Below, piece after piece: positions 9,822 to 28,019 of a stretch of DNA of 64,000 nucleotides. This DNA is from Myxococcota bacterium (GTDB lineage: Bacteria > Myxococcota_A > UBA9160 > SZUA-336): NCBI GenBank assembly GCA_035498875.1, contig DATJZP010000067.1, positions 80,107-144,106 of the forward strand, written 5' to 3'. The notes beneath the pieces were generated by a model. That model was not told the origin of the DNA, made no database searches, and saw only the letters and a program-made list of their open reading frames with translations. Every line of letters begins with the position of its first letter. Position 1 is the first letter of the stretch. Position numbers and translations under genes: made by a program.

Positions 9822-9838
9822 GGGTGGAGTCTAGCCGC

Positions 9839-10585
9839 TCAGCGCGTCGCCATGGCGCGCGCCATCGTGCGCACCTCGCCGCGGATCCACTCCGAAGCCG
9901 TTCGCTGCAGCTCGTCGGCCGGCCGGCGCCGGAGCGTGGGCCCGAACGCGAGCTGCAGCCGGATCTGCGGCCGGCGGAAGGTCTGCAGGAAGTGACCCAC
10001 GAATGGGTCGTCGTCGATCCAGGCGTCGCGCCGATCCTCGTACTCGATCGCGAACGGCACGACCGGGAAGTCGTACTGCTCGGCGAGCTGGAACAGTCCC
10101 GGGAAGAACGGCAGGATGCCGGGCCCGCGGCAGGTGGTGCCCTCGGGGAAGGCCGCGAACGCGAGCCCCTTCTGCAAGAGCGCGAGCGCGCCCTCGCGCG
10201 CCTTCTTGCGGCTGTCGCGGTCCTCGCGCGTGACGAACACCGTCGGGTGTAGGGAGGCCGCGCTGCCGAACACCGGCCAGCTCGCGATCTCCATCTTGGC
10301 CAGGAAGCCACAGGGCCGTACGCCCAGCACGGCGAGAATGTCGATGTACGACCGGTGATTCCCGAGCAACAGGTGCGGACCCGGGGGCGGTGCGCCGCGC
10401 ACGCTGATCTCGAGCCCCAGTGACCCGCAGAGGCGCCGCGCCCAGGCGTGGCCGTGGCGCGCGGCCTCGTGCGGGCAGCCGCCGCTGCGGGCGTGGGCGA
10501 GCTTCAGCTCGGCGAGCGCGCGGGTCGTGATCGCGGCCATGCGCGCCAGGCGCAGATAGGAGCGGACATCCGAGTTCTTCTTCAT
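9839..10585 (-). CDS. lysophospholipid acyltransferase (PlsC/AGPAT family; OlsA candidate)
   Basis: GNHRSYIDI (HX4D) and FPEGT motifs. Confidence 0.8.
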   Translation of the reverse strand: MKKNSDVRSYLRLARMAAITTRALAELKLAHARSGGCPHEAARHGHAWARRLCGSLGLEISVRGAPPPGPHLLLGNHRSYIDILAVLGVRPCGFLAKMEIASWPVFGSAASLHPTVFVTREDRDSRKKAREGALALLQKGLAFAAFPEGTTCRGPGILPFFPGLFQLAEQYDFPVVPFAIEYEDRRDAWIDDDPFVGHFLQTFRRPQIRLQLAFGPTLRRRPADELQRTASEWIRGEVRTMARAMATR

Positions 10586-10725
10586 CGTCGAGTCTCTCCC
10601 TTCGCAATACAGGCTCGGTTTCGCGTGTTACGGGAGAGTGACGAACGAGATACGAACCGGATGCTCGCCGTTTCTTCGCATGGGCGACCGCGCTTCGTCA
10701 CGGACGTTGCCGAACGTCTCACACG

Positions 10726-11652: not shown

Positions 11653-12056
11653 AAGATCGGGAAGTCGGTCTTCCGCCAGGCGATCTTGCCGTCGCGCCCC
11701 ACCAGCACGAGCGCGCGTTTGGTCATGCCGAGCAGGCCGCGCGCGCCGTACGCGCGAGTCACCGTGCCGCCGGCGTCCGCCGCCACCGGGAAGGGCAGGC
11801 GGTGCTTGTCGGCGAACTTGCCGTGCGACTCCTCGCTCTGCGGATTCAGCGCCACCACCTGGATCCCGAGCTTGTCGAACACGCCCAGGTTGTCGCGGTA
11901 GTTACAGAGCTGCTTGGTGCACACCGGCGTGTCGTCGCCCGGGTAGAACACCAGCAGCACGGGTCCCTTCCGCAACAGCGCGGAGAGCTGGAGCGGGCCG
12001 CGGTTCGAGGCAAGCGAGAAATCCGGTGCGCGATCGCCGACTTCGGGTGTGCTCAT
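11601..12056 (-). CDS. bcp: thiol peroxidase, Bcp-type peroxiredoxin (AhpC/TSA family)
   Basis: LLVFYPGDDTPVCTKQLC motif. Confidence 0.85.
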   Translation of the reverse strand: MSTPEVGDRAPDFSLASNRGPLQLSALLRKGPVLLVFYPGDDTPVCTKQLCNYRDNLGVFDKLGIQVVALNPQSEESHGKFADKHRLPFPVAADAGGTVTRAYGARGLLGMTKRALVLVGRDGKIAWRKTDFPIFYETADDVRSAVERLSL

Positions 12057-12209
12057 GGCCGGAACCCTATCACACGGCCGGCGCGCGTTTCCAGGTTCCG
12101 CAGCAAGGGCGCGGACTTGCGCCGAAGATGAGAAATCTCGAATAACTCGTGCGAGTCACGAGTCGGATTCGCGACTCACCGCATTCCGGTGAGAGGAGGG
12201 TTGTGACTC

Positions 12210-13130
12210 GTGACACAGCTTCGCCGCTTCGCCTGCGCAACTGCCTTCGCACTGTCGTGTCTCGCCGCCGCGCCCGCGGCGCGCGCCGACGTCGATCTCT
12301 GGCCGCTCTACGAGCACGACCGGGACACCACCACGGTGCTGTATCCGTTCTACGTGCACGAGGGCGATTTCCTGATGGTGTTTCCCGCGTACTACCGCAC
12401 CGACCAGGGGCACGAGCAGCACGTGCTGTGGCCGCTGCTCAAGATGCGCGACGGCCGGCTCACGCGGCTGGCACCGTTCTGGTATTCGAGTGACCCCGGC
12501 AAGTACTGGATCTTCCCGCTCGCGTACCACGACGACGACGAGACCTGGCTGCTCGTGCCGCCGGCCGTGTTCAAGGCGCACCAGTTCCAGATCGTACCGC
12601 CGCTGTTCGTGCACACCCACACGCCGGACGACGACTGGCTGGTGACCGGCGTGCGCGCTTTCGGCTGGCACAAGACCGCCGCTGAGTCGCACTACTTCGC
12701 CGGCTTCCTCGGCGACTACACCAGGCGCGCGAACGGCGAGTGGAGCGGATCGCTGACTCCGCTGCTCTACACCTGGGGCGGCTCCGAGAACCGGGGCGTG
12801 GTCGTGCCGCCGCTGTTCTGGGACACGCACACCAAGGACTCGTCCACGTTCTGGCTGGCCGGCTATCTGCGCGACCGCTCGCCGACGAGAGACTCCTGGG
12901 CGATGGTTCCGTTCATCGGAAGCTCGCGCGAGACCGCGAGCAACGGCGACCTGACGCGCCGGCTCTCGATCCTGTGGCCGGTGTACAAGCGCAAGGAGAC
13001 CAGCAACGCGGCGGGCGAGATGACCTACCGCCACCGCCGCTTCCTGGCGTTCGCCGACGACACCACGCCCGACCGCCGCCAGCTCTCGCTCTTCGGCTTC
13101 GTCGTGCGCGAGGCTTCGAAGACGCTCTAG
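12210..13130 (+). CDS. secreted hypothetical protein (signal peptide ...AAAPAARA/DV)
   Basis: GTG start after GAGGAGG RBS; Trp/Tyr-rich repeats (PLF/PLY). Confidence 0.5.
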   Translation: MTQLRRFACATAFALSCLAAAPAARADVDLWPLYEHDRDTTTVLYPFYVHEGDFLMVFPAYYRTDQGHEQHVLWPLLKMRDGRLTRLAPFWYSSDPGKYWIFPLAYHDDDETWLLVPPAVFKAHQFQIVPPLFVHTHTPDDDWLVTGVRAFGWHKTAAESHYFAGFLGDYTRRANGEWSGSLTPLLYTWGGSENRGVVVPPLFWDTHTKDSSTFWLAGYLRDRSPTRDSWAMVPFIGSSRETASNGDLTRRLSILWPVYKRKETSNAAGEMTYRHRRFLAFADDTTPDRRQLSLFGFVVREASKTL

Positions 13131-14428
13131 ATGCGCTCGAGGATCGTCGAGATGCCCATCCCGGCGCCGATGCACTGAGTGGCCAGGCCGTAGCGGCCGC
13201 CGCTCTTGCGCAACTCGCGCGCGACCGTCGTGACCAGCCGGGCGCCGGTCGCGCCGAGCGGATGACCGATCGCGATCGAGCCGCCGTTCACGTTGGCGCG
13301 CTCGGCGGGGATGCCGAGATCGCGCAGCGACGGGATCACCTGCGCGGCGAAGGCCTCGTTGAACTCGACCCGGTCGATCCGGTCGGCGCCGATGCCCGCG
13401 TGGCGCAGCGCCTTCCGGGTCGAAGGGATCGGGCCCAGCCCCATCACCTGCGGCTTCACGCCGCCGACGCCCAGACCCACGATCCGCGCCAACGGCTCGA
13501 GCCGCAGCTCGCGCGCCCTTTCCTCGCTCATCAGCAGCGCCACCGAGATCCCGTCGTTGGTGGGACACGAGTTGCCGGCGGTGATCACGATCTCCTGCTT
13601 GCCGTAGCTCACGATCCCCTTCACCGGCTGGAGCCCGGCGAGCTTGTCGGCCGTGGTGTCGGCGCGCAGACACTCGTCCTTGTCGAAGAGCACGGTCTTG
13701 CCGGTCTCGGCCTCGACCCAGTTGCCCTCGGCGTCGAACACCGGCTCCTCGACCTCGAGCGGCACCAGCTCGTCCTTGTAGAAGCCCGCCTCGTAGGCGC
13801 GCGCGCACTTGCGATGACTTTCGGCCGAGAACGCGTCGAGCTCGGCGCGCGACAGTCCGTAGCACTCGGCCACGTTCTGCGCGGTCTGAGTCATCGACAT
13901 GAGCGGCGGCGCGTCGAGGATGTAGTCGGGGAACTTCACCGAGAAGGTCTGGTCGTGATCGGGCGCCATGTTGCGCTGCTCGGGCGTGAGCTTGAACAGG
14001 CGCGGGTTCAGCTTGGTGATGCGGGTCGGCGTGGCGCGCGGCCCGCCGCCCATGAGCTGGCGGCCCATGCGCTCGATCCCGAGCGCGAGCCCGCAGTCGG
14101 TGGCGCCGACCATGATCGAGGTGGCCACCCGGTGCAGTGTCTCCATGCTGGAGCCGCACTGGCGGTTGGTCACGAAGTTGCATGCCTCCATCGGCAGGCC
14201 CGCCAGCCGCGCGACCATGCCCAGGCCGACGAACTCACCCGAGCCCGCCACGTTCCCGAGCCCGACGTCTTCGACCATCGCCGGCTTCACCTTGGGGTTG
14301 CGCGCGAGCAGCGCGCGCACCACCTGGGCTCCGGCTTCGTCCAGGCGCGTGGCGACGAGCTTCCCGCGACCTCCGCGCGCGAAGGGCGAACGCACACCAT
14401 CCACCAGGACGACTTTCCGCAGCTCCAT
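13127..14428 (-). CDS. acetyl-CoA C-acyltransferase (thiolase)
   Basis: Thiolase motifs NRQCGSSMET and C-terminal GLATQCIGAGMG. Confidence 0.9.
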   Translation of the reverse strand: MELRKVVLVDGVRSPFARGGRGKLVATRLDEAGAQVVRALLARNPKVKPAMVEDVGLGNVAGSGEFVGLGMVARLAGLPMEACNFVTNRQCGSSMETLHRVATSIMVGATDCGLALGIERMGRQLMGGGPRATPTRITKLNPRLFKLTPEQRNMAPDHDQTFSVKFPDYILDAPPLMSMTQTAQNVAECYGLSRAELDAFSAESHRKCARAYEAGFYKDELVPLEVEEPVFDAEGNWVEAETGKTVLFDKDECLRADTTADKLAGLQPVKGIVSYGKQEIVITAGNSCPTNDGISVALLMSEERARELRLEPLARIVGLGVGGVKPQVMGLGPIPSTRKALRHAGIGADRIDRVEFNEAFAAQVIPSLRDLGIPAERANVNGGSIAIGHPLGATGARLVTTVARELRKSGGRYGLATQCIGAGMGISTILERI

Positions 14429-14496: not shown

Positions 14497-15936
14497 TTGT
14501 GGGTCGTGAGCTTGGTGGCGGCGGCGTTCCTGCGCGGTCTCGGAGTGGTGTACGCCTGCGCGTTCCTGTCACTCTGGGTGCAGGTCGACGCGCTGTACGG
14601 GCCGGCGGGCATCTCGCCGGTCGGCCGCTGGCTGGTCGCGGCGCAGGAGCAGCTCGGGGCAGAGGCGCCGCTCGGCTTCCCCAGCCTGTTCTGGCTCACC
14701 GGCGCGAGTGAGTGGGCGCTCCACGGCCTGTGCGCGCTGGGGCTCGGGGCGGCGGTCGCGCTGATCGCGGGGCGGCTGTCGCTGTGGGCCGCGCTCACGG
14801 CCTGGGCCAGCTATCTGTCGTTCGTCTCCGTCGGCAGCGTGTTTCTCGCCTTTCAGTGGGACTTGCTGCTGCTCGAGGCGGGGATGGTCGGCCTGTTCGC
14901 CGCGTCGGCCGAGCCGCGGCTCGGGGTCTGGCTGGCGCGCGCGCTGCTGCTCAAGCTGATGTTCCTGTCGGGCGCGGTGAAGCTCGCCTCGGGTGACTCG
15001 ACCTGGCGCGATCTCACGGCGCTCACCTATCACTACTGGAGTCAGCCGCTGCCCTCGCCGACGAGCGTGGCCGCGGCGGCGCTGCCGGTCCCGGTCCAGA
15101 AGCTCTCGACCTTCCTGACGCTGGCGATCGAGCTCGGGGCCCCCTGGGGCATGCTCGGGCCGCGCCGGCTCCGGCTCGCGAGCGCGGCGCTCCTGGCCGG
15201 GCTGCAGGGACTGATCGCCGCGACCGGCAACTACGGCTTCTTCAATCTGCTGACGCTGGTGCTGTGCGCCTGCCTGCTGGACGACTCCGACCTGGCTCGG
15301 CTCCGGTTCCTGGCGCGCCCCGAGCCTGTGACTCGCGACCGCCTGCGCGTGCCGCGCCGGGTCGCCGCGGGGCTCGTGGCGGCCTCGAGCCTGTTGGTGG
15401 CGTGCCAGCGACTCACTCCGCCCGCGCGCTTCCCCGGCGCGCTGCGGAGCTTTTGCGACCTGCTCTCGACGCTGCGCAGCGTGAACTCCTACGGGCTGTT
15501 CGCGGTCATGACGACGGAGCGGCCCGAGATCGTGATCGAGGGCAGCGCCGACGGCGCCGATTGGCGCCCTTACCAGTTTCGCTGGAAGCCCGGCGACCTC
15601 GAGCGCGCGCCGCGCTTTGCCGGGCCGCACATGCCGCGCGTCGACTGGCAGATGTGGTTCGCGGCGCTCGGCAGCTGCCAGGACGAGCTCTGGTTCCAGC
15701 GCTTCCTGCAGCGCGTTCTCGAGGGCAGCCGGCCCGTGACGGCGCTGTTCGCGCGGAACCCGTTTCCAGGCGACCCGCCGCGCTATCTCCGCACCACCCT
15801 CTGGCAGTACCGCTTCGCCGGCGGCGAGGAGCGGCGCGCGGGCGCCTGCTGGGTGCGGTCGGACCCCCAGAGCTACTGCCCGATCGTGACTCTGCGCGAC
15901 GGCCACCTGGCTGCGGCAAACGATCTCTCGCGGTAA
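14497..15936 (+). CDS. lipase maturation factor (LMF1) family membrane protein
   Basis: DALYGPAGI, GNYGFFNLLT, SYGLFAVMTT and WQMWFAALG match the LMF (PF06762) family. Confidence 0.7.
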   Translation: MWVVSLVAAAFLRGLGVVYACAFLSLWVQVDALYGPAGISPVGRWLVAAQEQLGAEAPLGFPSLFWLTGASEWALHGLCALGLGAAVALIAGRLSLWAALTAWASYLSFVSVGSVFLAFQWDLLLLEAGMVGLFAASAEPRLGVWLARALLLKLMFLSGAVKLASGDSTWRDLTALTYHYWSQPLPSPTSVAAAALPVPVQKLSTFLTLAIELGAPWGMLGPRRLRLASAALLAGLQGLIAATGNYGFFNLLTLVLCACLLDDSDLARLRFLARPEPVTRDRLRVPRRVAAGLVAASSLLVACQRLTPPARFPGALRSFCDLLSTLRSVNSYGLFAVMTTERPEIVIEGSADGADWRPYQFRWKPGDLERAPRFAGPHMPRVDWQMWFAALGSCQDELWFQRFLQRVLEGSRPVTALFARNPFPGDPPRYLRTTLWQYRFAGGEERRAGACWVRSDPQSYCPIVTLRDGHLAAANDLSR

Positions 15937-16105
15937 CTCCTGCGTCCGTTCCCGCCAGGCGCTCGCGGGCTCACGAGCCGGCAACTCCATGGCGCGCCGG
16001 CTTCAGAGCATCTTTCCGCCAACCGATCGGAAAGCTGGAAGGAATCACCCCCGATGCCGGCCCTCCCAGCCCTGGCTTTCGACAAGTAGGAGCCTCGCTC
16101 GCGGC

Positions 16106-17524
16106 ATGACTCGACGCGAGCCGATGGAGTCACCCGTGGCCAGGCTGGCCGCACTCTGGCTGCGCCTGGCGCACGTGTTCATCCCGCCCCGGCAGCGGCT
16201 CGACCCCGATACCTACCGGCGCGCGCGCACCACGGTCTACTCCTGCCTGGTGCCCGCGCCGATGTCGCTGGTGTTCGCCTGGAACTACTGGGAGACGCTC
16301 GGCGGCCAGGTCGGGCTGCTCGCCACCGCGATCGTGCTGGGCACGAACCTCGCCGCGCTCGCGGCGCTGCTGACGCTGCGCCAGACCGGCAAGGTGTCTC
16401 TCGCCGCGAACGTGTTGCTCGGCTACGCCTTCCTCGAGTTCGCGGCGCTCGCGGTGCTGTTCGGGGGCCCGCTCTCGTCGTCGATCTACTGGAGCGTGAT
16501 GCTGCCGCTGGTCGCGATGCTGACCGGCGGCACCCGGCTGGCACTGCCCTGGCTCGGGCTCTGTCTCGCCGAGTACGCGGCGGTGTACTGGCTGCAGCTG
16601 CAGGGTGTGGAGTTCGTGAACCGCCTGCCGCCAGACCGGCGCATGCCGCTCTGGGTCAGCAGCATCTCGAGCATCAGCGTGTTGTGTCTGGTGTTCGTGC
16701 TGATCTACGAGCGCGCCAAGCACGAGACGCTGCGCACGTTGCTCGGCGCGAACGCGGCGCTGGAGCGCGCGCGCGACGCGGCCGAGGCGGCGAACCGCAG
16801 CAAGAGCGACTTCCTGGCGAACGTGAGTCACGAGATCCGCACGCCGCTGACCGCGATCCTGGGCTACGCCGAGCTGCTGCTGCGCGAGAGCGACTCGGGG
16901 GCGATCGCCAAGAGCTACGCCGCCACGCTGCTCACGATCCGCCGCAACGGCGAGCACCTGCTCGACATCATCAACGACATCCTCGACTTCTCGAAGATCG
17001 CCGCGGGCACTTTCGACGTGGAGCGGGTGCCGGTCGCGCCGGTGGCGCTGGTCTCCGAGGTGGTCTCGCTGATGAGCATCCGCGCCGAGGCCAAGCGCCT
17101 GTCGCTCGCGGTCGAGTGCGAGCCGCCGTTGCCCACGAAGTTCGAGACCGACCCGCGGCGCCTGCGCCAGGTGCTGGTCAATCTGATCGGGAACGCACTG
17201 AAGTTCACCGACCGGGGCCGGGTCGTGCTGCGAGTCACCGGCGGCGCCGACGCGCCCGGGCCGCGCGTCCGCTTCGAGGTCGTCGACAGCGGGATCGGCA
17301 TCACCGAGGAGCAGATGGCGCGACTGTTCCAGCCGTTCGCCCAGGCCGACGCCTCGACCGCGCGCCGCTACGGCGGCACCGGGCTCGGGCTCTCGATCTG
17401 CAAGCACCTGGTCGAGCTGCTCGGGGGCGAGATCGGCGCGCACAGCCGGCCGGGCGCCGGCAGCACCTTCTGGGTCGAGCTGCCGGGCGCGCCGGTCGAG
17501 GGGAGTCACTCCGGTGAGGCATGA
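16106..17524 (+). CDS. sensor histidine kinase with membrane-embedded multi-TM sensor and no periplasmic domain
   Basis: HisKA H-box (SHEIRTPL) and HATPase_c (GTGLGLSI) after a ~5-6 TM N-terminal region. Confidence 0.8.
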
Positions 17525-19343
17525 CTCGGGCAGTCTGTCCCGCTGGCTTGCGCGCGCCGAGGCCGCGTTCGTCTCGCCGCACCTGCGCGGCGATCCGGTC
17601 GCGCTGCGCACGGCCTTCGTGGTGGCGGGCTTCTCGCTCGCGCCGGCGCTGTTCGTGCCATTCCTGGCCTGGATGGGCTGGGAGTCGTTTCCGCGCGAGG
17701 TGGCGGTGCGGATCCTGCCGCTGGTGCTGCTCGCCGCGCCGGTCTGCGTGCTGGTCTCGGTCACCCAGCGCTTCGCCGGCCCGACCGCGCTGGCCGGCAA
17801 CTTCATGCTCGCCTACGCGTTCGCGCTGTTCGGAATCGTGACTTACTACGCGGGCGGCGCGGTCTCGCCGCCCAGCTTCTGGAACGTGCTGATCCCGATG
17901 ACGGCGATCGCGCTGGTGGGCCGGCGCTGGGCCGCCTTCTGGGCGGTGATGGTGCTGGCCGAAGCGGTGGCCACGGTCTGGCTCGACCGCCACGGACTGC
18001 ACTTCGAGAACCGCATCCTGCCGCAGTGGCGGCCCCTGTACTGGTTCGCGAGCATCGGCTCCCTCACCACGCTGATCATGCTGGCGGGGCTCGTCTACGA
18101 GCGCACCAAGGACGCCGCCCTGCACACGCTCGAGGCCGCCAACGCCGAGCTCGAGCGCGCGCGCGACGACGCCGACCGCGCGAGCGCCGCCAAGAGTGAC
18201 TTCCTCGCGATCCTGACTCACGAGATCCGCACGCCCATGACCGCGATCCTGGGCTTCGCCGACGTATTGCGCGACGAGTGGGCAGAGCGCGGCTTCCCGG
18301 CCCGACAGATCGATGCGCTGGCCACGATCCAGCGCAGCGGGCGCGAGCTGCTCGAGACGATCAACGATCTGCTCGACCTGTCGAAGATCGAGGCGGGCAA
18401 GCTCGAGCTCGAGCAGATCGCGTTCTCGCCGGGCGAGCTGATCTCGTCGGTGCTCGAGCCACTGCGGCCGCGCGCGCTGGAGCTCGGGCTCGAGCTGTCG
18501 TTCGAGCTGGAGGCGGCCGTCCCCGGTGTGGTGCAGAGTGACCCGGCGCGGCTGCGCCAGATCGCGGTGCACCTGCTCGAGAACGCGCTCGCGTTCACGG
18601 CGCAGGGTGGGGTGCAGGTGTCGCTCGGCGTCAGCGACGAGGGCCAGGGCCCGCAGCTCGACCTGCGCGTGCGAGACACCGGCTTCGGGATTCCGCCCGA
18701 GAAGCTGGCCTCGCTGTTCCAGCCCGGACTGCGGCGCGCGGCGTGCGCCGACGCGTCGGAGCGCATCGGCCTGGGCCTGGCGATGTGCAAGCGACTCACC
18801 GAGCTGCTCGGGGGCCGGATCGAGGTCGAGAGCGAGCTCGGCCACGGCAGCCTGTTCCGGGTGCTGGTGCCGATCCGCCCCGCGAGCGCGCCGGCCTGGT
18901 CGCCCGCGCGCTTCGAGACACCCGCCCATTCGCGGCCCACGTTGCGCGCGCACGTGCTGGTGGTGGACGACGGGCCGGACAATCTGCGGCTGATCTCGCA
19001 CGTGCTGGGGCGCGCGGGCGCCGACGTGGTGACGGCCAGCGATGGCCGCCGCGCGCTGGCCTGCGTGCGCGAGGCCGAGCGCGCCGGCCGGCCGTTCGAC
19101 GTGGTGCTGATGGACATGCAGATGCCCGAAATGGACGGCTACGCCGCCACCGCCGAGCTGCGGCGCAGCGGCTTCACGCGCCCGATCCTCGCGCTCACCG
19201 CCCATGCGGTGCCGGGGACACGCGAGAGCTGCCTGGCGGCGGGCTGTGACGATTTCGCGACCAAGCCCGTGGACCGGCACGAGCTGATCGAGCGCATCAA
19301 CCGGCTGTGTCCGGATATACTACCTTCGGGGAGTGACTCTTGA
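17514..19343 (+). CDS. hybrid sensor histidine kinase/response regulator, paralogue of the upstream kinase
   Basis: Same architecture as the upstream kinase plus a C-terminal REC domain (VLVVDDGPDN...DVVLMDMQMPEMDG). Overlaps the upstream kinase by 11 nt and the P450 start by 4 nt. Confidence 0.85.
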   Translation: MRHDSGSLSRWLARAEAAFVSPHLRGDPVALRTAFVVAGFSLAPALFVPFLAWMGWESFPREVAVRILPLVLLAAPVCVLVSVTQRFAGPTALAGNFMLAYAFALFGIVTYYAGGAVSPPSFWNVLIPMTAIALVGRRWAAFWAVMVLAEAVATVWLDRHGLHFENRILPQWRPLYWFASIGSLTTLIMLAGLVYERTKDAALHTLEAANAELERARDDADRASAAKSDFLAILTHEIRTPMTAILGFADVLRDEWAERGFPARQIDALATIQRSGRELLETINDLLDLSKIEAGKLELEQIAFSPGELISSVLEPLRPRALELGLELSFELEAAVPGVVQSDPARLRQIAVHLLENALAFTAQGGVQVSLGVSDEGQGPQLDLRVRDTGFGIPPEKLASLFQPGLRRAACADASERIGLGLAMCKRLTELLGGRIEVESELGHGSLFRVLVPIRPASAPAWSPARFETPAHSRPTLRAHVLVVDDGPDNLRLISHVLGRAGADVVTASDGRRALACVREAERAGRPFDVVLMDMQMPEMDGYAATAELRRSGFTRPILALTAHAVPGTRESCLAAGCDDFATKPVDRHELIERINRLCPDILPSGSDS

Positions 19344-20668
19344 AGACGTTGAAGGACGTTCCGCGGCTCGGCTTCCTGAACGGCATGCGCCAGCTGCTGG
19401 CGAGCGGCGGCGGGCGCGTCGACATGCTCTCGGGCCTGCGCGACCAGTACGACTCACACGGCTCGGTGGTGCTGCAGCTCTCGGGCCCGTTCAAGCTGAT
19501 CAACCTGTTCGGCCCCGACGCCAACCGGCTGGTGCTGATGGATCGCGACCAGATCTTCAGCGCCAAGCGTCCCTGGGATCAGATCATGGGCCGGATCTTC
19601 ACCAACGGTCTGCTGCTGCGCGACGGCGCGGACCACAAGCACCACCGCAAGATCATGCACGAGGCCTTCACGCGGCCGGCGCTGCGCGAGTACGTGGAGC
19701 GCATGCACCCGATCGTGGCGCGCGGGCTCGAGTCACTGCCGAGCTCGGGCGAGCCGGTGCTCGCGTTCCGCGCCTACAAGGAGCTCACGCTGGCGCTCGC
19801 CGCCAGCATCTTCGTGGGCATGGACCTGGGGCCCGCCACCCGACCCATGAACACGGCGTTCGAAAACATGGTGGCGGCCTCGATGTCGCGCATCCGCCTG
19901 CCGTGGATCGGGCGCGAGTTCCAGCGCGGGCTGCGCGGGCGCCAGTACATGCTCGACCTGCTCGGCGGCATGCTCGAGAAGAAGCACGGCGATGCTGGCC
20001 CCGACATGTTCGGCCGGCTGTGCCGCGCGCGCACCCCGGAGGGCGAGGCGCTCGCCGACGCCGAGGTGCTCGACCACATGGTGTTCCTGATGATGGCGGC
20101 GCACGACACCACCACCAGCACGCTCACGTCGCTGACCTACGAGCTGGCCAAGCATCCCGAGTGGCAGGAGCGGCTGCGCGACGAGTCACACGCGCTCGGC
20201 AAGGACGAGCCGGGCCTCGAAGAGCTGGGCCAGCTCGAGTCGCTGGGCTGGGCGCTGCACGAGACGCTGCGGCGCTATCCGCCGCTGCCGGTGATCCCGC
20301 GCGTCAACACGCAGGACTTCGCGTTCGAGGACTTCCAGATCCCGGCCGGCTGCATGGTGGTGGTCTCGCCGATCCATACCCATCACATGAGCGAGTGGTG
20401 GAGCGAGCCGTTCCGCTGGGATCCCGCGCGCTTCGCGCCGGGCCGGGCCGAGCAGGAGCGCCACACTCACTCCTGGGTCCCGTTCGGCGGCGGCCCGCAC
20501 ATGTGTCTGGGGCTGCGCTTCGCCGAGTCGCAGGTGCGGCTGGTCATGCACCAGCTGCTCTTGCGCTACCGCTGGAGCGTGCCCGAGGGCTACCAGATGC
20601 CGGTCCAGCAGGCGCCGATCTCGAAGCCGCGCGACGGTCTGCCGACCACCTTCCACAGACTGGCTTGA
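19340..20668 (+). CDS. cytochrome P450
   Basis: Heme-binding loop FGGGPHMCLG; ETLRRYPP (ExxR). Confidence 0.9.
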   Translation: MKTLKDVPRLGFLNGMRQLLASGGGRVDMLSGLRDQYDSHGSVVLQLSGPFKLINLFGPDANRLVLMDRDQIFSAKRPWDQIMGRIFTNGLLLRDGADHKHHRKIMHEAFTRPALREYVERMHPIVARGLESLPSSGEPVLAFRAYKELTLALAASIFVGMDLGPATRPMNTAFENMVAASMSRIRLPWIGREFQRGLRGRQYMLDLLGGMLEKKHGDAGPDMFGRLCRARTPEGEALADAEVLDHMVFLMMAAHDTTTSTLTSLTYELAKHPEWQERLRDESHALGKDEPGLEELGQLESLGWALHETLRRYPPLPVIPRVNTQDFAFEDFQIPAGCMVVVSPIHTHHMSEWWSEPFRWDPARFAPGRAEQERHTHSWVPFGGGPHMCLGLRFAESQVRLVMHQLLLRYRWSVPEGYQMPVQQAPISKPRDGLPTTFHRLA

Positions 20669-20702
20669 CAGCCCTCGGCGCTCGGCCGGAGCATGGGCGC
20701 CC

Positions 20703-21632
20703 ATGGAACAGAAACCCCTCGGTCGCTCCGGTCTCCGCGTCTCGGTCGTCGGTCTAGGCTGCAACAACTTCGGCATGCGCTGCGATCTCGCGCAGACACG
20801 CTCGGTGGTCGGCAAGGCGCTCGACCTGGGAGTCACTCTGTTCGACACCGCCGACGTCTACGGCGGGCAGGGTGTCTCGGAGGAGTATCTGGGCAAGGCG
20901 CTCGAGGGCCGGCGCAACGAGGTGATCGTCGCGACCAAGTTCGGCATGCCCATGGGCGAGGGCTACCGCCGCGGCGGCTCGCGCCGCTGGATCATGCAAG
21001 CCTGCGAGAACAGCCTGCGCCGGCTCGCGACCGACTACATCGACCTGTACCAGATCCACTTCCCCGACGCGTCGACGCCGATCGAGGAGACACTGCGCGC
21101 GCTCGACGATCTCGTGCGCCAGGGCAAGGTCCGCTATCTCGGCTGCTCGAACTTCGCCGGCTGGCAGGTGGTCGAGGCGGCCTTCACCGCGCGCAACGCC
21201 CACCTGACGGCCTTCGTCTCGGCGCAGAACTTCTACAACCTGCTGGAGCGCGGCGTCGAGAAGGAGCTGGTGCCGGCGTGCAGCGCCTACGGGCTGGGCA
21301 TCCTGCCGTACTTCCCGCTGGCGAGCGGGCTGCTCACCGGGAAATACCGGCGCGGCGAGGCGCCGCCCGAGGGCACGCGGCTCTCGGTGCCGCGCTTCAA
21401 GGGCGCGCTCACCGACAAGAACTTCGACAAGGTCGAGAAGCTCGCGAGCTTCGCCGCGGACGCGGGTCACTCGCTGCTCGATCTGGCGATCGGCTGGCTC
21501 GCCAGTCAGGCGCACGTGCCCAGCGTGATCGCCGGCGCGACCCGGCCCGAGCAGGTCGAGCAGAACGTGCGCGCGGGCGAATGGAAGCTCACGCCCGCCG
21601 AGCTCGCGAAGGCGAGCGAGCTCAGCGCATGA
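20703..21632 (+). CDS. aldo/keto reductase
   Basis: AKR fold motifs (LFDTADVYG, IDLYQIH). Confidence 0.9.
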   Translation: MEQKPLGRSGLRVSVVGLGCNNFGMRCDLAQTRSVVGKALDLGVTLFDTADVYGGQGVSEEYLGKALEGRRNEVIVATKFGMPMGEGYRRGGSRRWIMQACENSLRRLATDYIDLYQIHFPDASTPIEETLRALDDLVRQGKVRYLGCSNFAGWQVVEAAFTARNAHLTAFVSAQNFYNLLERGVEKELVPACSAYGLGILPYFPLASGLLTGKYRRGEAPPEGTRLSVPRFKGALTDKNFDKVEKLASFAADAGHSLLDLAIGWLASQAHVPSVIAGATRPEQVEQNVRAGEWKLTPAELAKASELSA

Positions 21633-22459
21633 GCGGGCGCGCGATCGAGACCGGGACCGAGACGCTGCTGGCCCGGGTCGAGGACGGCGTCGCGACTCTG
21701 GTCATGAATCGGCCCGAGCGCCGAAACGCCTTGTCCGACGAGATGTTCCGGGGCATGGCGCAAGCGTTGCGCGAGGCCGAGACCGCGTCCGACGTACGCT
21801 GCCTGGTGCTCACCGGCGCCGGCGGCGCCTTCTGCTCGGGCGGCGACGTGAAGGGCATGGCCGAGGGCTCGAGCCGCGGCGGGCCGGGAGTCACGCTGGA
21901 CGAGCGCATCCACCGGCAGCGCCTCTCGCAGCGCGAGACGGCGGGACGGCTGTACCGCATGCCCAAGCCCGTGATCGCCTCGCTGCCGGGCCCGGCCGCC
22001 GGCGCGGGTCTCTCGCTCGCGCTCGCCTGCGACCTGCGGATCGCGGCCGAGAGCGCGCTGCTCACCACCGCGTTCGCCAAGGTCGGCTTCAGCGGCGACT
22101 ATGGTGGAAGCTACTTCCTGACTCATATGGTCGGCTCGGGCAAGGCGCGCGAGCTGTATTACCTGTCCGACCGCCTCGACGCGAAGGAAGCCGAGCGGCT
22201 CGGGCTCGTGAACCGCGTGGTGCCCGATGCCGCGCTCGAAGCCGAGACCCGGGCGCTGGCGCAGCGCCTCGCCTCGGGCGCCACCGTGGCCTACCGCTAC
22301 ATGAAGGAGAACTTGAACCGCGCCGCCCAGGGCGCGAGCGTGGAGGAGTGTCTCGACCTCGAGGCCACGCACCACGTTCACGCGGGACTCACCGAGGATC
22401 ACCGCGAGGCCGCCAAGGCGTTCGTCGAGAAACGCATGCCGGTGTTCAAGGGTCGGTAG
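21629..22459 (+). CDS. enoyl-CoA hydratase/isomerase family protein
   Basis: Crotonase motifs; start overlaps the AKR stop (ATGA). Confidence 0.85.
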   Translation: MSGRAIETGTETLLARVEDGVATLVMNRPERRNALSDEMFRGMAQALREAETASDVRCLVLTGAGGAFCSGGDVKGMAEGSSRGGPGVTLDERIHRQRLSQRETAGRLYRMPKPVIASLPGPAAGAGLSLALACDLRIAAESALLTTAFAKVGFSGDYGGSYFLTHMVGSGKARELYYLSDRLDAKEAERLGLVNRVVPDAALEAETRALAQRLASGATVAYRYMKENLNRAAQGASVEECLDLEATHHVHAGLTEDHREAAKAFVEKRMPVFKGR

Positions 22460-23497
22460 GGCATCGCCCTCGAGCCCGAAGCACTGCTGGCCGCGCTGCG
22501 AAAGGCGCTCGACCGGCCGGCGCTCGAGCTGCGCGAGCCGCCACAGGCGATCGCCGGCGGCTACGACACCGCGATCTTCGCCTTCCGCCTGGCCGGGGCG
22601 CCGGACGGCTGGAGTGACTCGCTGATCCTGCGCCTGTTCCGGGTCGAGACGCCGGGCACGCTGGCGCGCTTCGAGACCACGGTGCAGCGCTGCGTCGCGG
22701 AGCTGGGCCTGCCCGCGCCGCGCGTCTTCCTGGTCGAGGAGGACCCGGGTCTCCTGGGCGGCGCCTTCATGGTGATGGAGCGACTGCCCGGCGAGCCGTT
22801 GCTGCGCGCCGTCTTCGGCACGGCGGCGCTGCGCGTGCCCGGGTTGCTGGCGGGAATCCAGGCGCGGCTCCACACGCTGGACTCGGCGGCGCTTTCGCGC
22901 GCGCTCGCCCGCGCGGGCTTCGATCCGGCCGCGCGCAGTGCGGAAGCGTCGCTCTGCGACTGCGCCCGGACGGTCGAGTCACTCGGGCTCGACGGCCTGC
23001 GGGGCGCGGCCGACTGGCTCGGCCGCAAGCTCCCCGAGCCGTCGCCGGCTTCGATCTGCCACGGCGACTTCCACCCGCTGAACGTGCTCTGGGACGGAGC
23101 GCGAGTGACTGGCCTGATCGACTGGCCGCGAGTGCACCTGTCGCCCGCCGAGCACGACGTGGGGTCGTCGATTGCACTCATGAGTCACGGACCGATTCGC
23201 GTGCCAGCCTGGCTCAGGCCGGTCGCGCGCGCCGCGCGCGCGCTGCTGGTCCGCCGCTACGTCGCGGCCTACCGCGCGCTGCGACCCCTCGATCCGGCGC
23301 GGCTGCGCTATTTCGAGGCGCTGCGCATGCTGGAGTTCCTGGTCGAGGAGGGCGCGGAGCAGGCGGCCGAGCTCGCCGGCCGCGGCCGTTCCTCGAAGCC
23401 GAGCCCGTGGGCCGATCCCGGCGTGCAGCGCGGCATCCTGGCCCGCTTCGAGTCACTCACGGGCGTTCGCGCCACGCTGCCGCGTCCGCTCGCGTAA
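22460..23497 (+). CDS. aminoglycoside/choline-kinase-type phosphotransferase (APH family) with no canonical start codon; in frame with the upstream enoyl-CoA hydratase and separated from it only by TAG
   Basis: HGDFHPLNVLWD and IDWP catalytic motifs. The N-lobe (AIAGGYDTAIFAFRL...LILRLF) is encoded between 22460 and 22681, where the frame contains no ATG/GTG/TTG. Track ORF 22682 begins at an internal GTG. Confidence 0.55.
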   Translation, partial: GIALEPEALLAALRKALDRPALELREPPQAIAGGYDTAIFAFRLAGAPDGWSDSLILRLFRVETPGTLARFETTVQRCVAELGLPAPRVFLVEEDPGLLGGAFMVMERLPGEPLLRAVFGTAALRVPGLLAGIQARLHTLDSAALSRALARAGFDPAARSAEASLCDCARTVESLGLDGLRGAADWLGRKLPEPSPASICHGDFHPLNVLWDGARVTGLIDWPRVHLSPAEHDVGSSIALMSHGPIRVPAWLRPVARAARALLVRRYVAAYRALRPLDPARLRYFEALRMLEFLVEEGAEQAAELAGRGRSSKPSPWADPGVQRGILARFESLTGVRATLPRPLA

Positions 23498-23628
23498 ACC
23501 GCTTTCGCCGGTCCGGGGTCCGACGAGATGGGGCGCCGATGAATGTGATACCTCTCCAGGTCGAGCCTCGGTCAGAAGCTCGCCCAGGCGGTGAAACTTG
23601 CCCGTAAACCCAGCGTCCGAGCCGTGAA

Positions 23629-26600
23629 ATGTGGATCGTCCGTCTAGCGCTCCGCCGCACCTACACCTTCGTCGTCATGGCGATGCTGATCGGGGTGCTG
23701 GGCGCGTTGTCGATCCTGACCATGCCGACGGACATCTTTCCCAACATCGACATCCCGGTCGTGTCGTCGGTCTGGTTCTACGGCGGCCTCTCTCCCGACG
23801 AGATGCAGAACCGCATCACCACGATCGTCGAGCGCGCCACCACGACCACGGTCAACGACATCCAGCACATCGAGTCGCTGACCCTGCGCGGGGTCACCGT
23901 GATCAAGGTGTTCTTCCAGCCGGGCGCGAAGGTCGAGTCGGGAGTGGCGCAGATCAACGCGATCTCGAACACGCTGATCCGGCCGCTCCCGCCGGGCATT
24001 ACGCCGCCGCTGATCCTGCAATACAACGCGGCCAGCGTGCCGGTGCTGCAGCTGAGTCTCTCGAGTGACACGCTGTCGGACCAGGAGATCAACGACCTCG
24101 GCTCGAACTTCATCCGCACCCAGCTCGTGACCGTGAACGGCGCGTCGATCCCCCCGGCCTACGGCGGCAAGTCGCGTGTGATCATGGCCGACCTCGATCC
24201 CGACGCGCTGTACGCGCGCGGCATCTCCCCGCAGGACGTCTCCGACGCGCTGAACTCGGGCAACGTGATCCTGCCCGCGGGCTCGGCGAAGATGGGCGTG
24301 CGCGAGTACGACGTGGCGCTGAACGGCAGCCCGCGGGTGCTGACCGACCTGGACGACTTGCCGGTGAAGGCGGTGAACGGCGCCGTGGTGAAGATGCGCG
24401 ACGTGGCCCACGTGCACGACGGCTTCACGCCGCAGACCAGCATGATCCGACGCGACGGTCACCACGCGGTGATGATCTCGGTGCTGAAGAGCGGCCGGGC
24501 CTCGACGCTGGCCGTGGTGAAGGGCGTGAAGGAGCTCTTGCCGCGGATCATGGCCGGCATGCCGCCCGAGCTCTCCGTGGACGCGCTGTTCGATCAGTCG
24601 CTGTTCGTGCGCGCGGCGGTGGGCGACGTGCTGCGCGAGGGCGCGATCGCGGCAGGACTCACTGCGGTCATGATCCTCTTGTTCCTGGGCAGCCCGCGCA
24701 GCACGATCATCGTGGCCACCTCGATCCCGCTCTCGGTGCTCACGTCGATCATCGTGCTCAAGGTCCTGAACCAGACGCTGAACGTGATGACGCTCGGCGG
24801 GATGGCGCTGGCGGTCGGCATCCTGGTCGACGACGCGACCGTCGAGATCGAGAACATCCACCGCAACCTGGCCCAGCACAAGCCGATCCGGCAGGCGATC
24901 CTCGACGGCGCGCAGCAGATCGCGGTCGCGGCCTTCGTCTCCACGCTCGCGATCTGCATCGTGTTCGTGCCCGTCTTCGCGCTCGGCGGCGTGGTGGGCT
25001 CGCTGTTCTCGCCGCTCGCCATGTCGGTCGTGTTCGCGATGCTGGCCTCGTATCTCCTGTCGCGCACCCTGATCCCCACCATGGTCCTGTATCTCCTGCC
25101 GGCCGAGCTCGAGCGCGAGCACGCGCGCAAGGAGGGCGAGGAGCATGGACTCACCGCGCGCCTGCACCGGCGCGTGGGCGACGCTTTCGAGAGACTCGGC
25201 CGCTCGTACGAGCGGGGGCTCTCGGCGGCGCTGGCGAACCGACGCTTCTGGGCGCTCGGCTTCGGCGCCTTCGCGCTGGCCTCGCTCGTGCTCGTGCCGT
25301 TCGTGGGCCGCGACTTCTTCCCGACCATCGACGCGGGCAGCCTGCGCATCCACGTGCGCGGACCCACCGGCACCCGGCTCGAGGAGACCGAGCACTACTT
25401 CCAACGCGTCGAGGACCGCATCCGCCAGCTGATCCCCCCGGACGAGATGGGCGTGATCCTCGACAACCTGGGCGTGCCCAATGGCATCAATCTCGCGCTC
25501 ACCGACAACGCCTCCGTGTCCGCGGCCGAGGGCGAGATCCAGGTGTCGCTCCGGCCCGGTCACGCGCCGACCGCGAAGTATCTGAAGGAGCTGCGCCGGG
25601 TGCTGCCGAGCGAGTTCCCCGAGCTGATCTTCTTCGCGCAGCCGGCTGACATGGTCGGGCAGATCCTGAACTTCGGTCTGCCGGCGCCGATCGACGTGCA
25701 GATCAGCGGCCCGAACGCCGAGCAGGCGCACAACTACGCCTTCGCGCAGGAGATCGCCGAGCGGGTCCGGACGGTGCCGGGCGCCGCCGACGTGCACGTG
25801 CACCAGGTGCTCGATGGCCCGCGCCTGGCCTTCGACGTCGACCGCTCGCTCGCCGCCGAGAGCGGGCTGTCCGTGCGCGACGTGGCGCAGAGCCTGTTGA
25901 TCTCACTCACCGGCTCGGGCACCACCGGCACCAACTACTGGCTGAACCCGAAGAACGGCGTCAGCTACCAGGTGGTGATCCAGAGCCCGCAGCACCGCAT
26001 GAGCAACATCGGCGCGCTGCAGGCCACGCCGGTGACTTCGGTCAGCACCGGCAGCGACCAGACACCGCTCCTGCTCAGCAACGTCGCCACGGTCTCGCGC
26101 ACCATCACGCCCGTCGCCCTGAATCACTACAACGTGCAGCCCGTGTACGACGTGTTCGCGAACGTGCAGGGCACCGATCTGGGCAGCGTCGCCGATGGGG
26201 TGAGCCGGATCGTCGACGAGTACCGCGCCAAGATCCCCAAGGCCAGCATCATCACCATGCGCGGGCAGGTGCAGAGCATGAACGAGGCCTTCTCCGGCCT
26301 GGCCTTCGGGATCGCGTTCGCGATCGTGCTCGTGTATTTCCTGATGGTCGTGAACTTCCAGTCCTGGATCGATCCGGCCATCATCCTGATGGCGCTGCCC
26401 GGCGCGCTGGCGGGGATCCTGTGGTTCCTGTTCGCCACCAACACCACGCTGTCGGTGCCGTCGCTGATGGGTTCGATCATGGCGATCGGCGTGGCGACCT
26501 CGAACAGCATCCTGTTGATCACCTTCGCCAACGAGGAGCGACAGCGCGGGCTCGACGCGCGCGCCGCGGCGCTGTCTGCGGGCCGCACGCGGCTGCGCCC

Positions 26601-26802
26601 GGTGCTGATGACGGCGCTGGCCATGATCATCGGCATGCTGCCCATGTCACTCGGGCTGGGCGAGGGCGGTGAGCAGAACGCGCCGCTCGGTCGCGCCGTG
26701 ATCGGCGGTCTCACGCTGGCCACCGCGTACACGCTGTTCTTCGTTCCGCTGGCCTACAGCCTGCTGCGGCGCGCCGCGCCGAAGCCGGTGGAGGGCCATT
26801 GA
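23629..26802 (+). CDS. efflux RND transporter permease subunit
   Basis: 1057 aa; AcrB/CzcA-like N-terminus (DIFPNIDIPVV) and 12-TM/2-loop architecture. Confidence 0.9.
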   Translation: MWIVRLALRRTYTFVVMAMLIGVLGALSILTMPTDIFPNIDIPVVSSVWFYGGLSPDEMQNRITTIVERATTTTVNDIQHIESLTLRGVTVIKVFFQPGAKVESGVAQINAISNTLIRPLPPGITPPLILQYNAASVPVLQLSLSSDTLSDQEINDLGSNFIRTQLVTVNGASIPPAYGGKSRVIMADLDPDALYARGISPQDVSDALNSGNVILPAGSAKMGVREYDVALNGSPRVLTDLDDLPVKAVNGAVVKMRDVAHVHDGFTPQTSMIRRDGHHAVMISVLKSGRASTLAVVKGVKELLPRIMAGMPPELSVDALFDQSLFVRAAVGDVLREGAIAAGLTAVMILLFLGSPRSTIIVATSIPLSVLTSIIVLKVLNQTLNVMTLGGMALAVGILVDDATVEIENIHRNLAQHKPIRQAILDGAQQIAVAAFVSTLAICIVFVPVFALGGVVGSLFSPLAMSVVFAMLASYLLSRTLIPTMVLYLLPAELEREHARKEGEEHGLTARLHRRVGDAFERLGRSYERGLSAALANRRFWALGFGAFALASLVLVPFVGRDFFPTIDAGSLRIHVRGPTGTRLEETEHYFQRVEDRIRQLIPPDEMGVILDNLGVPNGINLALTDNASVSAAEGEIQVSLRPGHAPTAKYLKELRRVLPSEFPELIFFAQPADMVGQILNFGLPAPIDVQISGPNAEQAHNYAFAQEIAERVRTVPGAADVHVHQVLDGPRLAFDVDRSLAAESGLSVRDVAQSLLISLTGSGTTGTNYWLNPKNGVSYQVVIQSPQHRMSNIGALQATPVTSVSTGSDQTPLLLSNVATVSRTITPVALNHYNVQPVYDVFANVQGTDLGSVADGVSRIVDEYRAKIPKASIITMRGQVQSMNEAFSGLAFGIAFAIVLVYFLMVVNFQSWIDPAIILMALPGALAGILWFLFATNTTLSVPSLMGSIMAIGVATSNSILLITFANEERQRGLDARAAALSAGRTRLRPVLMTALAMIIGMLPMSLGLGEGGEQNAPLGRAVIGGLTLATAYTLFFVPLAYSLLRRAAPKPVEGH

Positions 26803-28019
26803 GCGACGCGCTGAACCGCGAGAACGAGTCGTTCTTCCGGCGGACGGCGACTCAGGCGCGCGCCAATCCGGCTGCGCTGGGCATCGCTGCGGTCTTTCTC
26901 CTGCTGCTGCTGGCGGGGATCGTGCCGCGCGTGCTGGCGCGGATCGAGCTGGCGCGCGATGCGCGACTCGCGGAGGGCGCGCTGCCGCGCGTGGCGGTCA
27001 CGCCGCCCAAGGCCGCACCCAGCTCGCAGCTCAGCCTGCCGGGCTCGGCGCAGCCGTTCCAGCAGGCCGTGCTCTATGCGCGAGTGAGTGGCTATCTCGA
27101 CAAGCGGCTGGTCGACATCGGCGACGTGGTGAAGGCGGGCGCGCTGCTCGCCCAGATCAGCGCGCCCGAGCTCGACCAGCAGCTCGCACAGGCGAAGGCC
27201 GACCAGGGCAAGGCCGAGGCCGACCTCGAGTTCGCGCGCTCGAGCCTGCGCCGCTTCGAAGAGGCCGACAAAGACGGAGCGATCGCCAAGGAAGACCTCG
27301 ACCAGCGCCGCAACGCCGTGCGCACCGCGGAAGCCACGGTGAAGGCCGAGAAGGCCACCGTGGCCGGGCTGGCCGAGCAGCAGGGGTTCGAGCGCGTGGT
27401 CGCGCCGTTCGACGGCATCGTGACCGAGCGCCACGTCGATACGGGCGCGCTCATCACCGCCGGCGGCGGCTCGAACACGCCCCTGTTCGCGCTGGCGCAG
27501 ACCTCGACGCTGCGCGTGTACGTCAATGTTCCGCAGGCGTTCGTCGACGATCTGGTGGTGGGCAAGCCGGTGAAGATTCACACGCGCACGCTGCCCGGCC
27601 GCGAGTTCACGGGCACGGTCGCGCGCACCGCCGGCTCACTCGATATCGCTACGCGCACCATGCTGACGGAAGTCGACATCCCCAACGCCGAGGGCGCGCT
27701 CAAGGCGGGCATGTATCTCCAGGTCGATTTCCAGGCCGACCTGGTTGGGCCGCGCTGGCGCGTGCCGGCGAGCGCGGTGATCTTCGACGGCGCGGGCACG
27801 CAGCTCGCGATCGTCGACGCCGACAACACGCTGCGCCTGCGCAAGGTGCTGTTGGGTCGTGACTTCGGCGACGAGATCGAGATCTCGTCGGGAATCAATG
27901 GCGACGAGAAGATCGTGACCACGCCCTCGGCGGCGCTCACGGACGGCACCAAGGTCGAGCCGGTCCAGCCCAAGGCCCCCGACCAGCCGATTCCGCACGG
28001 GATCCCGCCGCGCATATGA
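26799..28019 (+). CDS. efflux RND transporter periplasmic adaptor subunit
   Basis: Signal-anchor, coiled-coil hairpin and beta-barrel/MP domains. Confidence 0.85.
   Translation: MSDALNRENESFFRRTATQARANPAALGIAAVFLLLLLAGIVPRVLARIELARDARLAEGALPRVAVTPPKAAPSSQLSLPGSAQPFQQAVLYARVSGYLDKRLVDIGDVVKAGALLAQISAPELDQQLAQAKADQGKAEADLEFARSSLRRFEEADKDGAIAKEDLDQRRNAVRTAEATVKAEKATVAGLAEQQGFERVVAPFDGIVTERHVDTGALITAGGGSNTPLFALAQTSTLRVYVNVPQAFVDDLVVGKPVKIHTRTLPGREFTGTVARTAGSLDIATRTMLTEVDIPNAEGALKAGMYLQVDFQADLVGPRWRVPASAVIFDGAGTQLAIVDADNTLRLRKVLLGRDFGDEIEISSGINGDEKIVTTPSAALTDGTKVEPVQPKAPDQPIPHGIPPRI

Follow-up and report, generated by a model that had tools for sequence, protein, structure and literature searches.

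A 64,000-nucleotide stretch of a Myxococcota bacterium genome (GenBank assembly GCA_035498875.1, contig DATJZP010000067.1, positions 80,107 to 144,106 of the forward strand; G+C 70%; corresponding to k141_2172512 of ENA ERZ27256511), referred to here as the window, contains a cluster in which two membrane-embedded sensor histidine kinases (HK1 and HK2) directly precede genes for a cytochrome P450, an aldo-keto reductase (AKR) and a crotonase-superfamily protein (ECH, for enoyl-CoA hydratase). The arrangement may be a lineage-specific composite operon assembled from two modules that are each widespread independently, with a plausible functional link between kinases and enzymes, a reading to which about an even chance can be given. 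The first module would be a double histidine kinase, each unit consisting of a divergent MASE6-like intramembrane sensor of six helices with a direct helical connection to HisKA, and the second an enzyme set in which a soluble P450 of a widespread orthologous group is followed by the AKR and the crotonase-fold protein. The gene map was drawn from a listing of open reading frames (ORFs) and codon-position G+C, with domains assigned through Pfam, and the genes of the conserved unit are the following (positions are those of the window).

16124 to 17524, + strand: HK1, with a six-transmembrane (6-TM) MASE6-like sensor (about 16124-16723), a helical linker, HisKA and HATPase_c, and no receiver (Pfam, gene caller).
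17514 to 19343, + strand: HK2, with a paralogous 6-TM sensor (17514-18101), HisKA, HATPase_c and a C-terminal receiver (Pfam; GTG start).
19340 to 20668, + strand: cytochrome P450, soluble, with a TTG start (Pfam p450, motifs).
20703 to 21632, + strand: AKR (Pfam Aldo_ket_red).
21629 to 22459, + strand: crotonase-superfamily protein (ECH_1), the final gene of the conserved unit (Pfam).

The six ORFs from HK1 to an APH-family kinase-like frame beyond ECH all lie on the + strand, and every domain call is backed by Pfam (P450 210 bits, Aldo_ket_red 245 bits, ECH_1 198 bits, APH 108 bits). The six-gene co-directional cluster that an earlier note had described from the letters alone was thus borne out in strand and domain content, with the correction that APH lies outside the conserved unit, being found only in the window and in one relative (L085).

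Relatives of the locus were collected by two routes. A scan of GTDB species genomes with the P450 returned at least 572 relatives, and the 80 best loci among them, each taken with up to 10 kb of flanking DNA, were compared by tblastn with the window's proteins. The P450 proved to be one of a large set of orthologues, with numerous clusters in the range of 63-92% identity, and it is 100% identical to a protein that NCBI assigns to a Myxococcota metagenome-assembled genome. Only two of these best 80 loci (L004 and L005, at about 79-80% P450 identity) carry HK1-HK2-P450-AKR-ECH, which was also found, via a sensor search, in the close relatives L002 and L003. The arrangement is restricted to loci whose P450 is at least 79% identical to that of the window. 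A pattern scan of metagenomes, for which an alignment of 15 sensor sequences was too divergent and a subset of five sequences worked, recovered 14 loci, mostly from the same clade. Every locus with at least 59% identity in the HK2 sensor that extends far enough shows the order LMF1, p206, HK1, HK2, P450, AKR, ECH, where LMF1 stands for an LMF1-like gene and p206 for a 206-residue soluble protein (the order of the operon itself is kept in L002-L005, L085, L087, L088 and L091-L093). The flanks differ: on the upstream side, an unrelated 306-residue ORF of the window takes the place of the CoA-transferase of relatives, and downstream of ECH one finds in relatives either convergent genes of beta-lactamase-like or FtsH-like type, or a set of small unrelated genes and then a convergent sigma-factor-like gene. 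The short junctions between the core genes were kept while the sensors of the clade diverged to 60% identity, and the kinase-P450 linkage looks maintained within the clade. Everywhere except in this clade of uncultured soil Myxococcota the kinase and enzyme modules are independent.

The junctions themselves required several corrections to the first description. HK1 had been taken to begin at 15989; its start is most likely ATG 16124, chosen by the gene caller, or ATG 16106, with homology to relatives beginning at 16129. HK2 starts at GTG 17514 and overlaps HK1 by 11 nt, and an ATG within an ATGA at 17521 is out of frame for HK2. The reported overlap of the HK2 stop with the P450 start is present and 4 nt long, but it reads TTGA instead of ATGA, the P450 starting with a TTG at 19340 that is homologous to ATG, GTG or TTG starts in relatives. 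The gap between P450 and AKR is 34 nt and not 35 nt, while the 4-nt coupling of AKR and ECH by ATGA was found exactly as reported. Across the clade the HK2 stop and the P450 start are separated by -4, +4, about 5, about 20 or about 25 nt, and a Shine-Dalgarno sequence for the P450 (GGGGAG or GGAG) lies inside the 3' end of HK2 in ten of the ten clade loci compared, with the start position kept. Because of this spacing of -4 to about +25 nt and of the Shine-Dalgarno sequence within the HK2 3' end in all ten loci, HK2 and the P450 are very probably co-transcribed. The clade junctions along (p206)-HK1-HK2-P450-AKR-ECH are too short to hold separate promoters, and the genes from HK1 to ECH would form a single transcript.

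The earlier note had also held that the two kinases belong together, and this is supported by the existence of fused forms in other lineages. About 20 of the 149 best representatives of the sensor family are fused proteins of 1070-1320 residues with two complete sensor-kinase modules. With S for sensor, K for kinase core and R for receiver, ten of them have the architecture S-K-R-S-K-R and four S-K-S-K-R, the latter being exactly HK1 plus HK2, and Pfam found two HisKA and two HATPase copies in most of the fused proteins scanned. When 16 fused proteins are compared by score, the HK1 sensor is nearer to the N-terminal one in 12 and the HK2 sensor to the C-terminal one in 14. Since HK1 matches the N-terminal and HK2 the C-terminal sensors of the fused proteins, the duplication is old and the fused and split forms correspond; HK1 and HK2 are the split form of a recurrent tandem pair, HK1 of the N-type and HK2 of the C-type. 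A split tandem kinase pair is found in L097 as well, and the window's pair is likewise a tandem (double) kinase. In one further protein, P0001, HK1 (from TM6 into the HATPase domain) runs straight into the HK2 sensor with about 350 nt left out; this protein is either a recombination product between the paralogues or an assembly chimera.

Both proteins are class I (HisKA) sensor histidine kinases, with a marked asymmetry between the two catalytic modules. All five boxes of HK1 (H, N, G1, F and G2) are canonical and include the sequence GGTGLGL. In HK2 and its close orthologues the His, the Asn of the N box and G1 remain, the Lys of the N box and the first glycines of G2 are gone, and the ATP lid is altered. 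HK2 carries, as had been noticed, a C-terminal receiver (Response_reg 88.9 bits), in which all conserved residues (DD485-486, D534, T562 and K584) are present, as expected of a hybrid kinase. Several fused kinases (P0137, P0143, P0151, P0149 and P0152) are similarly uneven, one module lacking the phospho-His or the G2 box and the other being canonical. Histidine kinases are as a rule homodimers, insulated from one another; the asymmetry of the HK1 and HK2 modules is what a heterodimer or pseudo-heterodimer would be expected to tolerate. This recurrent, sometimes fused, double 6-TM kinase is the most interesting element of the locus.

The sensor regions of HK1 and HK2 (N-terminal 200 residues) are 37% identical over 219 residues (BLASTP, E 1e-40) and are paralogues, in agreement with the earlier description of homologous polytopic sensors. 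Neither has a significant Pfam match: MASE6 and MASE11 appear faintly at E of about 0.2 and about 12 bits, the HK1 sensor scoring 12.4 bits (E 0.16) against MASE6 (PF20966), below the gathering threshold of 27.4 bits, and the HK2 sensor giving no match to that model. A word-indexed protein search with the HK2 sensor returned three matches only, and the family became visible only by an exhaustive profile search of 1.84 billion representatives, which retrieved 983 homologues at E<=1e-3, of which 125 fell below 1e-10. The outputs attached to the distant homologues include HisKA, HisKA_3, MCP, PAS, CheA-like Hpt-HATPase and GGDEF-EAL, and retrieved homologues score 20-31 bits on MASE6 (P0237 31.0, P0217 26.2). 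Because these distant family members match MASE6 near or above its threshold, the HK1 and HK2 sensors are divergent MASE6 relatives, linked to that family only transitively through their homologues. Like MASE6, they are polytopic, about 170-190 residues long, with minimal loops, and the family stands N-terminal to HisKA, MCPs, PAS and GGDEF-EAL; unlike it, they form a divergent subfamily below the gathering score that typically occurs as an N-type/C-type tandem pair. A literature search on MASE6 returned nothing relevant.

An AlphaFold2 model of the sensor built on the 15-sequence alignment (pLDDT 91.2, pTM 0.84) consists of an N-terminal helix and six transmembrane helices, confirming the polytopic character, and the longest loop is about 10 residues, in keeping with the claim that there is no periplasmic loop. 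TM6 continues into the helix leading to HisKA, and the model has the features of a MASE6 domain, that is, a polytopic all-helical membrane domain with short loops placed N-terminal to the outputs. Its best match among solved structures is the 6-TM anchor of the Mycobacterium tuberculosis adenylyl cyclase Rv1625c (7yzk), at a TM-score of 0.60 and an rmsd of 3.6 A over 168 columns, with 15% identity and a weak Foldseek E of 0.14. The suggestion that the sensors might be 5TMR- or MASE-like was therefore settled in favour of MASE-like by the profile and structure searches, with divergent MASE6 relatives whose fold is nearest to the Rv1625c anchor. With Rv1625c/Cya and the mammalian membrane adenylyl cyclases the sensors share this structural match and a helical link from TM6 to the catalytic domain, and the fused double kinases mirror the TM1-C1-TM2-C2 pseudo-heterodimer layout of the mammalian enzymes (PMC9433096, PMC12414865); the difference is that the output here is a histidine kinase and not a class III cyclase, and that the pseudo-heterodimer here would be a predicted one.

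Turning to the enzymes, the P450 has the Cys-ligand loop FGGGPHMCLG, the ExxR motif (ETLRR) and the I-helix motif AAHDTT, all invariant in 13 orthologues, and with a Pfam p450 score of 210 bits it is a cytochrome P450; no N-terminal membrane segment is present in the sequence, and the protein is predicted to be soluble. Its closest solved relative by sequence is CYP120A1 of Synechocystis (PDB 2ve3; E 2.6e-41 over residues 53-441), which is also soluble and lies in the same broad group as CYP51, CYP3 and CYP4-like matches. The identity to CYP120A1 is about 30% (HMMER alignment), below the 40% at which family membership is set by the conventions of CYP nomenclature, so the window's P450 does not fall in the CYP120 family. 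Because the identity is only about 30%, the substrate of CYP120A1 cannot be transferred to it. An assignment to CYP51, with sterol demethylation, was rejected, since CYP51 proteins match far less well than CYP120. For AKR and the crotonase, only generic subfamily models gave matches.

A hint at the substrate comes from the neighbours of P450 orthologues elsewhere. The kinase-free orthologues come from metagenome-assembled genomes labelled Myxococcota, Binatia and Spirochaetales, and also from Porticoccaceae and other Gammaproteobacteria. Next to them stand short-chain dehydrogenases/reductases (21 loci), family III CoA-transferases (12), AKRs (12) and acyl-CoA dehydrogenases (10), and occasionally a thiolase or ECH. 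Around the cluster in the window itself there are a PlsC-type acyltransferase, an OlsF/GlsB-like N-acyltransferase, the LMF1-like gene, a thiolase and a family-21 glycosyltransferase. Such lipid-related genes fit the lipophilic signal or substrate that the earlier note had proposed, as far as a lipid substrate goes, and do not prove it. The closest kinase-free orthologues (69-72%; L006, L008 and L015, around 8500-14400) have DegT/EryC1-type aminotransferase, MBOAT, GDSL-like and TetR genes on their flanks, which hints at a role of the P450 in cell-envelope or glycolipid modification in those lineages. Two other loci (L034 1028-3261 and L042 4493-6905, one genome labelled "bacterium" only and one Deltaproteobacteria) carry a pair of neighbouring HisKA kinases whose polytopic N-terminus is of another kind; the pair lies 3-4 kb upstream of a P450 orthologue of about 60% identity and could represent a second, looser kinase-P450 neighbourhood.

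A working model that joins these elements can be put as follows. HK1 and HK2 would work together as a (pseudo-)heterodimer whose membrane sensor has 12 helices; the fully canonical ATP-binding domain would come from HK1, and the His and Asp acceptor sites from HK2. The kinase pair would respond to a membrane-resident lipophilic cue and signal to an unlinked Hpt protein or response regulator, and an aliphatic or acyl-CoA-type lipid related to that cue would be oxidised and processed by the P450, AKR and crotonase expressed along with the kinases. In a bolder version, which we regard as unlikely and put forward tentatively, HK1/HK2 and their fused relatives would be an obligate (pseudo-)heterodimeric kinase, a 12-helix lipid receptor laid out like TM1-C1-TM2-C2 in which one catalytic module is free to degenerate, and which in this clade would be tied firmly, through co-transcription, to a P450 pathway producing or removing the ligand.

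A number of observations weigh against this picture. P450 orthologues at 46-72% identity among the best 80 GTDB loci have no kinase pair alongside, so that the HK-HK-P450 order, whose conservation in related genomes the earlier note had named as a check, is invariant in one clade and absent at that distance. None of four fused double kinases looked up in other lineages has a P450, AKR or ECH adjoining, their neighbours being a YchF GTPase and an esterase, PALP and PhoX, a seryl-tRNA synthetase, and an AI-2E transporter. With only two of the best 80 GTDB loci positive and these four fused kinases lacking a P450, the P450 is not generally tied to these kinases; the adjacency is confined to one clade, in which about 16 kb is largely collinear, and might be due to nothing more than shared ancestry. 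The sensor family also has members with a single module (L095), and heterodimerisation is thus not a family-wide rule. The nearest sister P450 loci adjoin sugar aminotransferase, MBOAT and GDSL genes and not beta-oxidation genes, which leaves the substrate class uncertain, and Pfam revealed no P450 redox partner in the cluster or in the annotated stretch around it. A promoter and terminator scan of the cluster gave counts within the range of shuffled sequences; no terminator was predicted inside the cluster, and the scan was uninformative. On the signalling side, Pfam gave no Hpt match in HK1 or HK2, free-standing Hpt proteins not having been searched exhaustively, and tblastn found no further receiver or histidine kinase domain, hence no response regulator, anywhere in the 64-kb window. 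The phosphorelay inferred in the earlier note is consequently not demonstrated, neither an Hpt match in the kinases nor a second receiver in the window being found; its remark that no DNA-binding output domain is encoded nearby stands, none being detected by Pfam among the annotated genes between 5.8 and 30.6 kb.

It may be asked, then, whether the adjacency means anything at all. The double kinase and a housekeeping-type P450-AKR-crotonase set could have been joined once in the ancestor of the clade and kept by inertia, with the kinases acting on unrelated targets through an unlinked regulator. Both modules do occur independently elsewhere, the whole region is collinear in close relatives, and orphan and hybrid kinases are common in Myxococcota. 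Inertia sits less easily with a core order that survives while both flanks are rearranged, and with junctions of at most 25 nt with an embedded Shine-Dalgarno sequence that are kept despite sensor divergence to 60% identity; we consider this explanation possible, if somewhat unlikely. A different proposal starts from the kinases CqsS of Vibrio and LqsS of Legionella, whose genes adjoin genes of enzymes acting on lipophilic molecules. By analogy with cqsA-cqsS or lqsA-lqsS, a lipophilic autoinducer would be the product of the P450, AKR and crotonase, and the 6-TM kinase pair would detect it in the membrane. The design of CqsS is indeed close, with a six-TM intramembrane receptor lacking a periplasmic domain and joined directly to HisKA, plus a receiver (in part PMC4821796), and the 6-TM anchor of Rv1625c, the best structural match of the sensor, has been exchanged experimentally with that of the quorum-sensing receptor CqsS, so that receptors of this type are interchangeable with it (PMC4821796); enzymes for acyl-type substrates also share the operon. 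Against a synthase-receptor pair stand the wide occurrence of the P450 orthologous group without such a receptor, the lack of any detected sequence similarity to CqsS, the presence of P450, AKR and crotonase in place of a CqsA-like synthase, two paralogous kinases instead of one, and the absence nearby of an encoded Hpt or of LuxU or LuxO equivalents, and the proposal is accordingly rated improbable.

The operon of a P450 with sensor kinases, called unusual in the earlier note, is unusual indeed, and it nonetheless has a precedent in the Streptomyces conservons with CvnE-type P450s, in which a membrane sensor kinase-like gene and a P450 share one operon (PMC13343842). There the P450 is the fifth gene of kinase-containing operons, with predicted contacts to the kinase ATPase domains (PMC13343842), and the window's P450 might by extension be a haem-based accessory that binds and modulates the kinases, as proposed for CvnE; the 4-nt overlap of HK2 and P450 would suit translational coupling of such partners. 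That overlap is not conserved, the spacing reaching about 25 nt in relatives, and the catalytic P450 motifs are invariant in orthologues without a kinase partner. No Roadblock/LC7 (CvnB), DUF742 (CvnC) or small GTPase (CvnD) was found among the Pfam-annotated genes from 5.8 to 30.6 kb, and the window's locus therefore is not a conservon; it belongs to another phylum, and its P450 is followed by AKR and crotonase and has kinase-free orthologues. An accessory role is in our estimation highly improbable.

Returning to the composite operon with a possible kinase-enzyme link, its interest lies in what it offers experimentally. A conserved paralogous kinase pair, fused or split and often with one degenerate module, would be a natural test case for heterodimeric kinase signalling, and also for ligand sensing by six-helix membrane anchors, a question still open for adenylyl cyclases. 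The P450-AKR-crotonase genes in the kinase operon offer a specific, testable clue as to which chemical class the ligand belongs to, and the clade is a good entry point to the ligand question although the kinase-P450 link is not general.

The remaining features lie on either side of the conserved unit and vary more among relatives.

14506 to 15936, + strand: LMF1-like polytopic protein (Pfam LMF1 and LMF1_C, gene call), a context gene kept upstream within the clade.
15987 to 16128, no strand: deletion scar, 142 nt against about 700 nt with the p206 gene in relatives (blastn breakpoints against L084 and L085).
22463 to 23497 (frame open from 22460), + strand: APH-family kinase-like ORF, a variable add-on (Pfam APH, motifs).
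23629 to 26802, + strand: RND pump (Pfam).
26799 to 28019, + strand: membrane-fusion protein (Pfam).
27863 to 29413, + strand: outer-membrane factor, open frame (Pfam).

The p206 gene is found immediately upstream of HK1 in 12 of the 12 relatives that cover the position (L002 and L003 by gene calls, the latter at 7985-8602, L084-L086 and L088-L094), at 63-100% identity, as the first gene of the operon, and has been cleanly deleted in the window, where the 142-nt scar replaces about 700 nt. No match to p206 was found in Pfam, NCBIfam or the PDB; it may be an accessory of the kinases, and has been lost in the window's lineage. The LMF1-like gene, which the earlier note had thought possibly related to the cluster together with the thiolase, is conserved upstream only within the clade (L002, L003, L084, L085, L088, L089 and L091-L094), and the thiolase lies on the strand opposite to the cluster.

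At the other end, the APH and RND genes occur together in the window and L085 only, and would have been added later, as a variable element. The APH frame opens right behind the TAG of ECH, in frame as had been reported, and runs for 345 codons; it has no ATG, GTG or TTG before GTG 22682 (codon 75), and the Pfam match begins at codon 30, so there is no canonical start upstream of the domain. The match covers positions 4-238 of the 239 in the model, and the HGDFHPLN and IDW motifs and the codon bias are intact. In L085 the orthologue is 64% identical and is a separate gene, starting MEKLDAALL about 1 kb after ECH; the position of its ATG is taken in the window by an ATC (Ile, 22463-22465), three bases after the ECH TAG (22457-22465 for the two together). 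Because the L085 orthologue is separate with its own ATG, where the window has ATC, the in-frame ECH-APH junction is a by-product of deletion, and for the same reason an ECH-APH fusion or programmed readthrough was rejected as a reading of the junction. The APH gene may start at the ATC, be read through the TAG or be newly inactivated. APH, RND pump and thiolase were also rejected as members of the conserved unit; downstream of ECH, different, convergent genes are found in relatives.

The segment with APH, the RND pump, the membrane-fusion protein and the outer-membrane factor (22460-29413) is an indel of about 7 kb relative to L004, L088, L092 and L093. In most relatives the roughly 1.7-2 kb between ECH and the family-21 glycosyltransferase is filled by a convergent gene, for instance beta-lactamase-like in L004 and FtsH-like in L093. 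Upstream, the 306-residue ORF at 12210-13130 has strong codon bias, gave no match in Pfam or NCBIfam, and sits where relatives such as L003 have the family III CoA-transferase. Farther upstream, at 9839-11652, a PlsC-type acyltransferase (- strand) is divergent from an Acetyltransf_5 protein (+ strand), a pair that is kept in relatives; the latter protein is similar to OlsF, which makes ornithine lipids, over the N-acyltransferase half of that synthase (E 2.6e-59), and to the glycine-lipid protein GlsB, and the two together look like an aminolipid synthesis pair.

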